Positions 38,912 through 40,148 of a stretch of 64,000 nucleotides of DNA are shown in pieces. The DNA is taken from sequence record NC_052662.1; one strand, 5' to 3'. The position numbers were made by a program, and so were the translations under genes. The notes under the pieces are model-generated. The model was not told the DNA's origin and ran no database searches. It saw only the letters and a list, made by a program, of their open reading frames with translations. How positions within the stretch are numbered: the stretch's first letter is position 1; each line of letters starts with the position of its first letter. Source of the DNA: Escherichia phage Mt1B1_P17.

Positions 38912-39180
38912 CAAGTTTTGAAAGTAACTTCGTTACCGCTTGGGAAGCTTGGGATGAAATGGGTGTTGGGGAACTTTATTTTTACAATGTAACACTACGT
39001 CCAGAGTATGCTTACCTGGTACCAGAAGGGACAGTTCAAATTGGCATGTATCTGTCTTCTCAAGACGGTGTTGTTCAGTTTGAGTTTTATTCAAACACAA
39101 CGGACAACGAATTTACATATCGTGCATTTCATGTCAACATGTCTTTAGGAGAGGAGAAATTTTATGACGACCAAGTTTAA
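38890..39180 (+). CDS. hypothetical protein
   Basis: 96 aa. Confidence 0.5.
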   Translation: MAEFGSVTSFESNFVTAWEAWDEMGVGELYFYNVTLRPEYAYLVPEGTVQIGMYLSSQDGVVQFEFYSNTTDNEFTYRAFHVNMSLGEEKFYDDQV

Positions 39181-39361
39181 AACAGTAGAAGAAGCCGTAA
39201 AAGCAGCTTATGAGGCTTTAGCGGAAGCAGAGCAGTTAGCAGATGAGACTGGTAAAGGTTTCCGTTTCTCCCCTGAATATGGGATGGGTGGCTATTATGA
39301 TCCAGAAGATGAAAATGAGAATACTGGAACAAATTGGCATCCATCTTCTTTAAGTTGTTAA
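39164..39361 (+). CDS. small protein, C-terminal W-x-SS-x-C family, member 1
   Basis: 65 aa, ends ...GTNWHPSSLSC. Confidence 0.5.
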   Translation: MTTKFKTVEEAVKAAYEALAEAEQLADETGKGFRFSPEYGMGGYYDPEDENENTGTNWHPSSLSC

Positions 39362-39648
39362 TAGGAGGTAAAGTGGGAATCGAAGATATCAAAGGTTATA
39401 AGGCGCATACTGACGATAAGATTGGCAAGGTTAACGCTATTAAAGATGCAGAAGAGCGTTTAGGTTTAATCTTCAAAGCTTTAGAGGAAGAGTATTGTGA
39501 AGCATATCATGGGTCTTTTGACGGCACAGAAAAAGAATTAGATCTTGCATACGAACGTATTGATCAAATCCGTTGTGCTATTAAACATTTAAAAGAAGCT
39601 AGTATGTGGGCTTGTCGTTCAGTTTTCCAACCAGAGGAGAAATACTAA
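39334..39648 (+). CDS. hypothetical protein
   Basis: 104 aa. Confidence 0.45.
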   Translation: MASIFFKLLIGGKVGIEDIKGYKAHTDDKIGKVNAIKDAEERLGLIFKALEEEYCEAYHGSFDGTEKELDLAYERIDQIRCAIKHLKEASMWACRSVFQPEEKY

Positions 39649-39866
39649 TGAGTGATCGTAATGTTGAAGAATTAACTGAAAAAGCCCAAGCTATTATGGC
39701 TTTAGTGGACGAACTTACAAAAGAAGCTGAAGATGCTGGTTTTGGTCTTAGTTTAGAAAATGACGCAATCTGTTTTGAAGATTGGCAATCCTCTTCTTGT
39801 TATGGTGAAGGTGATGATGGTTTCGTCGTTAATTCTCAAGGCGTTTGGCACAGTAGTAGCTGTTAA
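39606..39866 (+). CDS. small protein, C-terminal W-x-SS-x-C family, member 2
   Basis: 86 aa, ends ...GVWHSSSC, also internal WQSSSCYGEGDDG. Confidence 0.5.
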   Translation: MGLSFSFPTRGEILMSDRNVEELTEKAQAIMALVDELTKEAEDAGFGLSLENDAICFEDWQSSSCYGEGDDGFVVNSQGVWHSSSC

Positions 39867-39875
39867 GGAGAGATT

Positions 39876-40148
39876 GTGGAGTCTGAAGGCGAACTGCTGA
39901 TAAAAAAGAAAGTTAAAGAGATGGAACAAGCACAAAGAAAGTTCCGTAAGGAGATTGAAGAACTTTGTGAACAGTTTCAGGAACAAGCTTGGATAGGTGA
40001 CTACGGTAACGGAGAAACTTATTACCCTACAGGAACGCCAGCCGCAGATCACTATATTGATTTCATTTGTGAAGATTATGGTGTAGAGTTGGATGAAAAT
40101 GGTTTAACCACAAGAGGTGTTTGGATCTCTTCTTCCTCAATGTGTTAG
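39876..40148 (+). CDS. small protein, C-terminal W-x-SS-x-C family, member 3
   Basis: 90 aa, ends ...RGVWISSSSMC. Confidence 0.5.
   Translation: MESEGELLIKKKVKEMEQAQRKFRKEIEELCEQFQEQAWIGDYGNGETYYPTGTPAADHYIDFICEDYGVELDENGLTTRGVWISSSSMC

Follow-up and report, generated by a model that had tools for sequence, protein, structure and literature searches.

Why should three small proteins encoded side by side in a phage genome all finish with a tryptophan, a short run of serines and a last cysteine? The question is raised by a 64,000-nucleotide stretch of Escherichia phage Mt1B1_P17 (NC_052662.1; hereafter, the window), in which three adjacent open reading frames (ORFs) of the + strand, ORF1, ORF2 and ORF3 (Table 1), end in NWHPSSLSC, VWHSSSC and VWISSSSMC, exactly as a sequence-only reading of this DNA had reported. 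We found that this C-terminal tail is the only element common to all the members of a diverse set of phage proteins, and that the genes for these tail proteins, in arrays of one to five, are near-obligately linked to a gene for a nucleotidyltransferase (NTase); in the window, the last tail gene stops at 40148 and the NTase gene begins at 40239. Together, these observations suggest that the tail proteins and the NTase are an undescribed two-part phage system directed against hosts.

Table 1. Position of the tail-protein genes, the NTase gene and the features lying among them in the window (aa, amino acids; pI, isoelectric point).
Feature	Coordinates	Strand	Description
Tail protein 1 (ORF1)	39164..39361	+	65 aa, pI 4.3
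Acb2/Tad1-hairpin protein, interposed gene for a non-member	39373..39648	+	91 aa, GTG start after AGGAGG
Tail protein 2 (ORF2), divergent member	39648..39866	+	72 aa, pI 4.05
Tail protein 3 (ORF3)	39876..40148	+	90 aa, pI 4.4
Terminator-like hairpin AACCCGCTTCGGCGGGTT plus T-run	40157..40181 (hairpin 40157-40174)	+	candidate, from sequence
Sigma-70-like promoter before the NTase gene	40180..40208	+	candidate; TTGACA, 17 nt, TAAACT, extended -10 TG
NTase, constant partner	40239..41180	+	313 aa; DUF7277 (residues 1-87), DUF7275 (107-297)

Among the 1089 ORFs of at least 30 amino acids in the window, only these three carry the pattern W.{0,2}SS.{0,3}C at the C-terminus. When the window and the related loci that we fetched were pooled, 68 of 3843 ORFs matched a similar tail pattern, where amino-acid composition would predict 0.17. 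In its general form the tail reads W-x-[S/A/P]-S-S-(x-x)-Cys-COOH and is borne by 165 distinct small acidic phage ORFs, with 129 of them, including ORF1 and ORF3, showing a tail of eight residues (W-x-[S/A/P]-S-S-x-x-C) and 28, including ORF2, one of six (W-x-[S/P]-S-S-C). The serine at W+3 is found in 100% of the tails of both forms and that at W+4 in 97% of the eight-residue and 64% of the six-residue tails; threonine occurs at neither position in any of them. The chain ends exactly at the cysteine in nearly all members, and the tail is kept in homologues from unrelated phage lineages. Additionally, 16 ORFs contain extra internal copies of the motif (for instance, EDW-x-x-S-S-C-YGE or W-N-D-S-G-C-S), which brings some members to two or three copies. 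Codon usage is mixed throughout the 165 tail ORFs: serine is encoded by 343 TCN and 148 AGY codons and cysteine by TGC in 105 and TGT in 60, and stop codons of all three kinds follow. It is hence the protein that is under constraint, and this mixture excludes a DNA-level cause, such as a ribosome-binding site, a terminator or a repeat lying over the gene ends.

The three products of the window differ in their layout. ORF1 shows an N-terminal helix, an EYGMGGYY hairpin motif and the tail W58-H-P-S-S-L-S-C65 (nt 39335-39358), and ORF3 a GDYGNGETYYP hairpin and the tail W83-I-S-S-S-S-M-C90 (nt 40122-40145). ORF2 also starts with a helix and ends with the tail W67-H-S-S-S-C72 (nt 39846-39863), and repeats the motif inside the chain, as DWQSSSC at residues 45-51 (W46-Q-S-S-S-C51, nt 39783-39800). 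Orthologues of ORF1 were found in related contigs, and double-motif orthologues of ORF2 in arrays of VR7, CHI14-like and other T4-like phages; homologues of ORF3 from T4-like phages of Enterobacter, Edwardsiella and others, 42-76% identical, all end in W[IV]SSSxMC. The sequence-only reading had started ORF2 at GTG 39606, which is unlikely; the most likely start is ATG 39648, because GAGGAG lies 8 nt upstream and the codon overlaps, as TAATG, the stop of the preceding Acb2-like gene, and RefSeq likewise places the start at 39648. Its choice of GTG 39876 for ORF3 is most likely correct, because homologues P0005 and P0006 conserve the N-terminal residues. This GTG is preceded by AAGGAG, which favours the 90-aa product; the RefSeq orthologue starts at an internal ATG, 39921 (75 aa).

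How much do the three proteins share beyond their ends? All of them match the profile of phrog_899, a family of unknown function (E values of 1.2e-12, 1.4e-5 and 5.1e-14 for ORF1, ORF2 and ORF3, respectively), and none has a family match in Pfam, NCBIfam or PADLOC. A profile of the main family that was built without the window sequences finds ORF3 (6e-23) and ORF1 (9e-11), also after removal of its tail columns (2e-17 and 5e-13), and does not detect ORF2. In hhalign comparisons of ORF2-type orthologues with the main family only the tail was aligned (probability 70%), and there was a weak match at the A-x-x-G-x-x-F segment when the tail was left out (probability 34%); ORF2 has no hairpin. Similarity thus reaches beyond the tail in ORF1 and ORF3, ORF2 sharing little else, and T4-like, Phapecoctavirus, Otagovirus, Acinetobacter and jumbo phages have an abundance of homologues that end in this tail. 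The lack of both, which the sequence-only reading had named as the result to set against its idea of a shared tag, is not what we obtained. Indeed, that ORF2 has little in common with the others except the tail strengthens the idea of the tail as an autonomous functional module. The same pattern emerges from clustering: when the last ten residues are cut, BLASTP divides the 165 tail ORFs into 22 clusters, of which the largest has 118 members and holds both ORF1 and ORF3, the ORF2-type and the VR7 ORF140c-type clusters have 11 members each, and most others are singletons.

The consensus of the family begins with an amphipathic helix, A-[DE]-x-x-G-x-x-F and a [DE]YG[SM]GxTYYP hairpin, and continues with a variable acidic stretch that leads to [EG]-G-x-W-[VI]-S-S-S-x-x-C. 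Its invariant columns are one hairpin glycine, the tryptophan, two serines and the terminal cysteine, which is the sole cysteine in many members. The proteins are acidic, with a pI of about 4.0-4.9 and a net charge of -8 to -13. A profile search of 1.84 billion representative proteins retrieved only 39 matches at E ≤1e-3, most of 48-119 aa; four giant matches, to SpaA- and cadherin-repeat proteins in the middle of the profile, were discarded as repeat or composition artefacts. In all, the three ORFs are real genes that stand in tandem and diverged long ago, within a superfamily of small, acidic and cytoplasmic proteins that is restricted to phages and defined by the C-terminal tail. We also considered a fourth member, ORF 38399-38911 (+; 170 aa, phrog_8569), which is located two genes upstream and ends in LWQSSDQ, that is, with W-x-S-S and no cysteine; it was rejected, with no detectable similarity to any tail ORF (best E 0.2), and its ending could be due to chance or that of a decayed relative.

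The link to the NTase gene is seen from both sides. In IMG/VR loci anchored on one small-protein subfamily, an NTase gene (E at most 1e-77) is found within approximately 1.5 kb and on the same strand in 42 of 44; the remaining two are contigs that end at the array, so that the arrangement holds in 42 of 42 evaluable loci. Reciprocally, 20 of 23 NTase-anchored IMG/VR loci contain one to five tail ORFs directly upstream and on the same strand. This linkage holds though the NTases are just 39-50% identical and the flanking genes differ, and many other phages have the array and the NTase gene abutting or overlapping. The same arrangement occurs in Pseudomonas phage phiPsa381 and Acinetobacter phage fHyAci03. 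In RB69-type and VR7-type T-evens the module is an insertion between e.3 and e.2, and T4 has no insertion at that junction. Among 50,697 phage records, 733 contain the NTase and 437 one branch of the tail family, and the two families are nearly matched in their record numbers for each host genus, with 251 versus 258 in Escherichia, 34 versus 36 in Enterobacter, 34 versus 35 in Klebsiella and 18 versus 18 in Shigella. In 185,579 species genomes we found nine NTase loci, all in metagenome-bin contigs, and eight of them show the arrangement. Locus L074 (5425-7742) has the NTase gene before the array, a rare rearrangement, and in L009-L011 the sole tail ORF seen (12768-12920, -) is located 6.8 kb downstream, on the opposite strand, and is cut by the end of the fetched stretch. 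A tie to tRNA genes was considered and rejected: the module lies near the tRNA region in T4-like phages, but 30 kb from the tRNA cluster of the window, which comprises ten genes (7007-8929, -; Met x2, Ile, Pro, Gln, Gly, Thr, Asn, Ser, Arg).

What kind of enzyme is the constant partner? It also matches phrog_2141 (PHROG 2141) and has 2208 homologues at E ≤1e-5. Residues G5-S6, D26-x-D28 and E70 are kept in its homologues, being invariant in a set of 36, and G5, S6, D26 and D28 also in eight distant ones; they are the Pol-beta nucleotidyltransferase signature (motifs I and II, hG[GS] and DxD, and the third carboxylate). Other residues kept in the homologues are K112, H115, H183-D184-x-x-H187, E229/E230, E237-R238 and C264. 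The DUF1814/AbiEii/MenT motifs III and IV comprise a family-specific lysine and aspartate (PMC7450476). The invariant K112 could be the lysine of motif III; D130 was discarded as the aspartate of motif IV because it is not conserved in RB69-type homologues. Structural comparison showed a two-lobed fold that is closest to MenT1, MenT3 and MenT4. We conclude that the protein encoded at 40239-41180 is a Pol-beta-type NTase with a MenT/AbiEii-like two-lobed fold. No AbiEii/DUF1814 model matched it in Pfam at E values up to 0.01, DUF7275 and DUF7277 being the only matches, and neither did the AbiE models of PADLOC at E values up to 1. The enzyme is acidic (pI 5.7), which speaks weakly against a nucleic-acid substrate.

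A pattern of residues co-varies with the presence of tail partners. NTases that have them share SPHF (121-124), HP (161-162) and KVC264TSITSGWFRE. The homologues from Vibrio, Streptomyces and Gordonia phages, with no tail partner within the approximately 5 kb examined on each side, differ at SPHF 121-124 and HP 161-162 and have Ile or Val at position 264. Cys264 is, however, not a perfect marker of the presence of a partner, a rule that is broken by DSS3_VP1. In several distant homologues the middle part of the N-terminal domain is missing and no tail partner is encoded nearby, namely in those of Vibrio phage Va3 (L086), Streptomyces phage Wakanda (L030), Gordonia phage Abscondus (L031) and DSS3_VP1 (L085/L087/L088). 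RNA ligase genes are found within a few kb of the NTase gene in Wakanda and DSS3_VP1, and Wakanda has a polynucleotide kinase gene there as well; these neighbours hint at an ancestral role of the NTase related to RNA ends.

The tail alone is universally conserved, beside a constant NTase, and the simplest reason for this would be that the tail meets the enzyme. That the tail works through the NTase at all is, in our judgement, slightly favoured, and we give even chances to the best-supported reading, a two-part module of a constant NTase and variable small proteins, in which the tail is the contact to the enzyme. Every paralogue would then engage the NTase through its tail, most likely presenting the Ser-Ser pair to the active site, where it would either accept a nucleotidyl or phosphoryl group or regulate the enzyme by acting as a pseudo-substrate. 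The terminal cysteine would contribute to anchoring through its thiol and free carboxylate, conceivably, although this is only an idea, to the partner-specific His and Cys residues of the NTase. In turn, the variable bodies would provide each paralogue with its own downstream target or specificity in the conflict between phage and host.

Pol-beta NTases transfer nucleotidyl groups to hydroxyls, and modification or binding sites are often present in several copies, which fits the two or three motif copies of some members. The lack of threonine at the core positions fits an acceptor hydroxyl or a pseudo-substrate better than a helix cap, which would tolerate Ser, Thr, Asp and Asn, and the many diverged paralogues fit substrates or adaptors better than antitoxins. 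There are also precedents for the chemistry: MenT1 and MenT3, controlled by a partner protein, phosphorylate a Ser or Thr hydroxyl of their own active site (PMC11375011, PMC10435456), and MNT NTases AMPylate the adjacent HEPN partner (PMC7641770). As to what a tail acting through the NTase would do, a modification acceptor is possible and is our tentative first choice; an inhibitor or regulator of the antitoxin-like kind seems improbable, and a docking handle of specificity adaptors would be a very unlikely role. We also hold as doubtful the more specific proposal that the NTase covalently modifies the Ser-Ser-(x-x)-Cys tails to yield modified effectors that each disarm a different host function. 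Such modification, a protein-tail chemistry not recognised so far, might consist of nucleotidylylation of the serine oxygen or phosphorylation, possibly followed by elimination and cross-linking to the cysteine.

We modelled ORF3 with AlphaFold2 (AF2) on an alignment of 40 sequences, which gave a confident structure (predicted local distance difference test, pLDDT, 94.5; predicted template modelling score, pTM, 0.78) with a helix at residues 4-34, a hairpin of strands 38-40 and 47-50, and a short helix at 62-67. The tail is modelled as a strand (82-85, VWIS) followed by a short helix (86-89, SSSM). A fold search of the PDB with this model did not retrieve any match, known sponges included.

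Several observations weigh against a tail that meets the NTase. In the AF2 monomer the tail is inside the fold instead of being an exposed peptide (mean pLDDT of 87 for the last ten residues). The known protein-modifying Pol-beta NTases mostly use tyrosine, not serine; the NTase and the small proteins are both acidic, with no obvious electrostatic complementarity, and no fusion of a tail protein to an NTase was found when looked for. The linkage also has exceptions, because DSS3_VP1 retains Cys264 and yet has no tail ORF in its whole genome, locus L033 lacks a tail ORF within 6 kb, and the other three of the 23 NTase-anchored loci have the tail ORF 6.8 kb away and on the opposite strand. Lastly, in the window a terminator-like hairpin and a promoter-like site lie between the array and the NTase gene, so that both need not be co-transcribed. 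The tag proposed in the sequence-only reading, for modification, targeting or metal binding, thus stands only in part: the tail is indeed shared by diverged bodies, but the model places it within a folded domain and not on a floppy extension. The idea of a tag receives indirect support from the near-obligate adjacency of the NTase and from the strict Ser-Ser pair, never replaced by threonine.

Of the other explanations, the one that survives best is that the tail is merely structural, with the tryptophan strand packing on the hairpin, the serines capping a helix and the cysteine closing the core, and that the linkage reflects the joint inheritance of an accessory block. The high-confidence strand and short helix given by AF2 are as expected from such a role, as is the conservation of the hairpin residues Y43, G44, G46, Y49 and P51 along with the tail in the main family. 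Nevertheless, the tail also ends bodies that have no hairpin and no detectable relationship, as seen in the 22 clusters and in the ORF2 type, which aligns at the tail alone; the chain stops exactly at the cysteine in nearly all members, and some contain extra internal copies. Moreover, neither Thr nor Asp nor Asn replaces serine at the two core positions, and the linkage persists in lineages without other shared synteny. We consider a purely structural tail rather unlikely.

It is also unlikely that the small proteins are stand-alone anti-defence factors (sponges, decoys or DNA mimics, comparable to the neighbouring Acb2) that act on host immunity independently of the NTase and whose tail is a metal or oligomerisation site, for instance with the cysteines of several subunits sharing a Zn or Fe-S centre. 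They are small, very acidic and encoded in an accessory region, with an Acb2 gene inside the array; their tandem paralogues have diversified as in an arms race; and the terminal cysteine is often the only one, other members having two copies of the motif. All of this would suit such factors, but a single cysteine with serines makes a poor metal site on its own, the proteins match neither Acb2/Tad1 (PF24729, the Acb2/Tad1 hairpin domain, was not detected in the three tail ORFs) nor any Pfam, NCBIfam or PADLOC family, nor a sponge fold in the PDB, and the adjacency of the NTase in 42 of 42 loci would be left unexplained.

A toxin-antitoxin pair of the MenAT/AbiE kind, in which the NTase would be a tRNA-modifying toxin and the tails would block its active site or trigger its auto-phosphorylation, appears distinctly unlikely. 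The closeness of the NTase fold to MenT1, MenT3 and MenT4 agrees with this possibility, as do the two genes abutting or overlapping in many loci and the short upstream proteins with a long N-terminal helix, which recall MenA1 before MenT1 (PMC10435456); MenA1 has 68 aa, is mainly helical and is encoded upstream of MenT1 (PMC11375011, PMC10435456). However, one antitoxin would be enough, whereas the arrays contain up to five diverged paralogues, and the part that they conserve is the tail and not the helix that suffices for MenA1 function. The NTase is acidic, unlike the electropositive tRNA-binding face of MenT toxins (PMC7450476), and matches no AbiEii/DUF1814 hidden Markov model. Besides, the module is essentially confined to lytic phages, since the nine loci in 185,579 species genomes are all in metagenome bins.

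The least credible alternative, and one that we regard as most improbable, is a core like that of ribosomally synthesized and post-translationally modified peptides (RiPPs), in which the NTase would activate the serine by phosphorylating or nucleotidylylating it, the serine would be eliminated to dehydroalanine and the terminal cysteine would add to it, closing a lanthionine or aminovinyl-cysteine (AviCys)-type ring and producing cross-linked 'lanthi-proteins'. A serine at -3, -4 or -5 from a strictly C-terminal cysteine is placed as AviCys or small lanthionine rings require, a single enzyme beside many diversified precursors is reminiscent of prochlorosins, and the partner-specific His123, His161 and Cys264 could, speculatively, form a LanC-like Zn site. 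Against this, Pfam found no LanB, LanC, LanM, LanKC or LanD-like domain in the NTase or its immediate neighbours, and no lanthipeptide dehydratase, cyclase or LanD domain in nine genes between 37512 and 41577 (ORFs 37512, 38399, 38890 and 41164, the three tail genes, the Acb2 gene and the NTase gene; the DprA-like ORF 37804-38409 was left out), threonine is never used, the ORF3 model is a folded domain and not a leader plus a core peptide, and we know of no Pol-beta NTase that performs such chemistry.

A module of constant NTase and variable tail proteins would resemble several known systems without being equivalent to any of them. Compared with MenAT1 and AbiE, the phage NTase has no PF08843 or PADLOC AbiE match, is acidic and has an extra conserved set of His and Cys residues, its partners are arrays of one to five diverged paralogues, and it is found in lytic phages instead of cellular genomes. 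MenA1-type antitoxins are short proteins encoded upstream of the NTase, with a long helix blocking its active site; the upstream position of the tail ORFs and the predicted helix 4-34 of ORF3 would fit this type, but their conserved element is the tail and not the helix; to our knowledge, a C-terminal W-x-S-S-x-x-C tail is present in no MenA or AbiEi protein. In HEPN-MNT (HepT/MntA type VII), GlnD-PII and GlnE-GS there is likewise an NTase beside a protein that is modified on a hydroxyl side chain (PMC7641770, PMC11586414). In those systems the acceptor is tyrosine, in contrast to the invariant Ser-Ser and terminal cysteine found here, where the partner is not HEPN: Pfam detected neither a HEPN domain, which bears the Rx4-6H motif, nor any other domain in the three ORFs, and the AF2 fold of ORF3 is alpha/beta and not all-helical. 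In addition, the phage enzyme is MenT-like, with 313 aa, and not a minimal MNT, and modification is here only hypothesised. Finally, RiPP systems with one enzyme and many precursors exist, such as the prochlorosin synthetase ProcM with its ProcA peptides. They offer an analogy only, in their tandem diversified products, their one conserved short Ser/Cys segment and the single adjacent enzyme gene; here the conserved segment is at the C-terminus of folded proteins of 65-200 aa and there are no lanthipeptide enzyme domains.

Databases hold both families only as bins of unknown function (PHROG 899 on one side and PHROG 2141/DUF7275/DUF7277 on the other), and the family descriptions of PHROG 899, PHROG 2141, DUF7275 and DUF7277 record neither the tail motif nor the linkage between families. 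An incomplete literature search did not yield any paper on the family, the motif or its link to the NTase, and nothing on the tail family was found in connection with phrog_899, DUF7275, DUF7277, RB69ORF134c to 137c, phAPEC8 or phage MenT-like NTases. If tail proteins and NTase do cooperate, they would be an unstudied and widespread module, carried by model and therapeutic phages (RB69, JS98, VR7-type T-evens, phAPEC8-like coliphages, Acinetobacter, Aeromonas, Pseudomonas and jumbo phages) within accessory regions that gather anti-defence genes. If true, this would extend the MenT/AbiE NTase theme from bacterial toxin-antitoxin and abortive infection systems to the phage side, and the strict C-terminal cysteine and Ser-Ser pair may point to a chemistry undescribed for Pol-beta-fold enzymes. 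The motif is simple, sharply defined and mutable, which makes the question directly testable.

The array also contains an unrelated gene, at 39373-39648 between ORF1 and ORF2, whose product matches PF24729 (E 2e-16, 60.4 bits for a cut-off of 27) and phrog_717 (E 3.6e-27), and is a homologue of the anti-CBASS (cyclic oligonucleotide-based antiphage signalling system) nucleotide sponge. The gene is unannotated in RefSeq NC_052654. In a 77%-related contig (L005/L081), the orthologues of the first and second tail ORFs overlap (5171-5383 and 5335-5616) and leave no room for the Acb2 gene, which therefore looks like a later insertion. Marked by this insertion, the array looks like a place where counter-defence genes land.

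In the stretch 40157-40208, a strong hairpin of the intrinsic-terminator kind, which would close the transcription unit of the array, is directly followed by the near-consensus candidate promoter. Transcription of an early region thus seems to be divided here, with the array on one side and the NTase gene on the other. Phage Schickermooser has an annotated terminator at the matching place; the candidate promoter at 40180-40208 is a consensus match only, at 10 of 12 positions.

Further out, the neighbouring genes (36769-38409 and 41528-42253) encode a NinI-like Ser/Thr phosphatase, a DprA-like protein and a DNA methyltransferase, and the annotation of a related record (L001) includes a second methyltransferase and a Sir2-like gene at a greater distance; such surroundings are typical of an accessory region for interaction with the host. 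Over region 37500-41600 the window shares 99.7% identity with phAPEC8-like coliphages of the genus Phapecoctavirus (subfamily Stephanstirmvirinae), among them vB_EcoM_ESCO25 and Ro121c4YLVW, where all the genes of interest are annotated as hypothetical proteins. GenBank MG065650.1 ('Campylobacter phage B15'), labelled as a phage of Campylobacter jejuni, encodes, at 40367-41305, an NTase that is 100% identical to that of the window, and megablast with the 4.1-kb region also retrieved single records labelled as Campylobacter, Acinetobacter and Pseudomonas; such host labels may be wrong, or the preparations may have been mixed.

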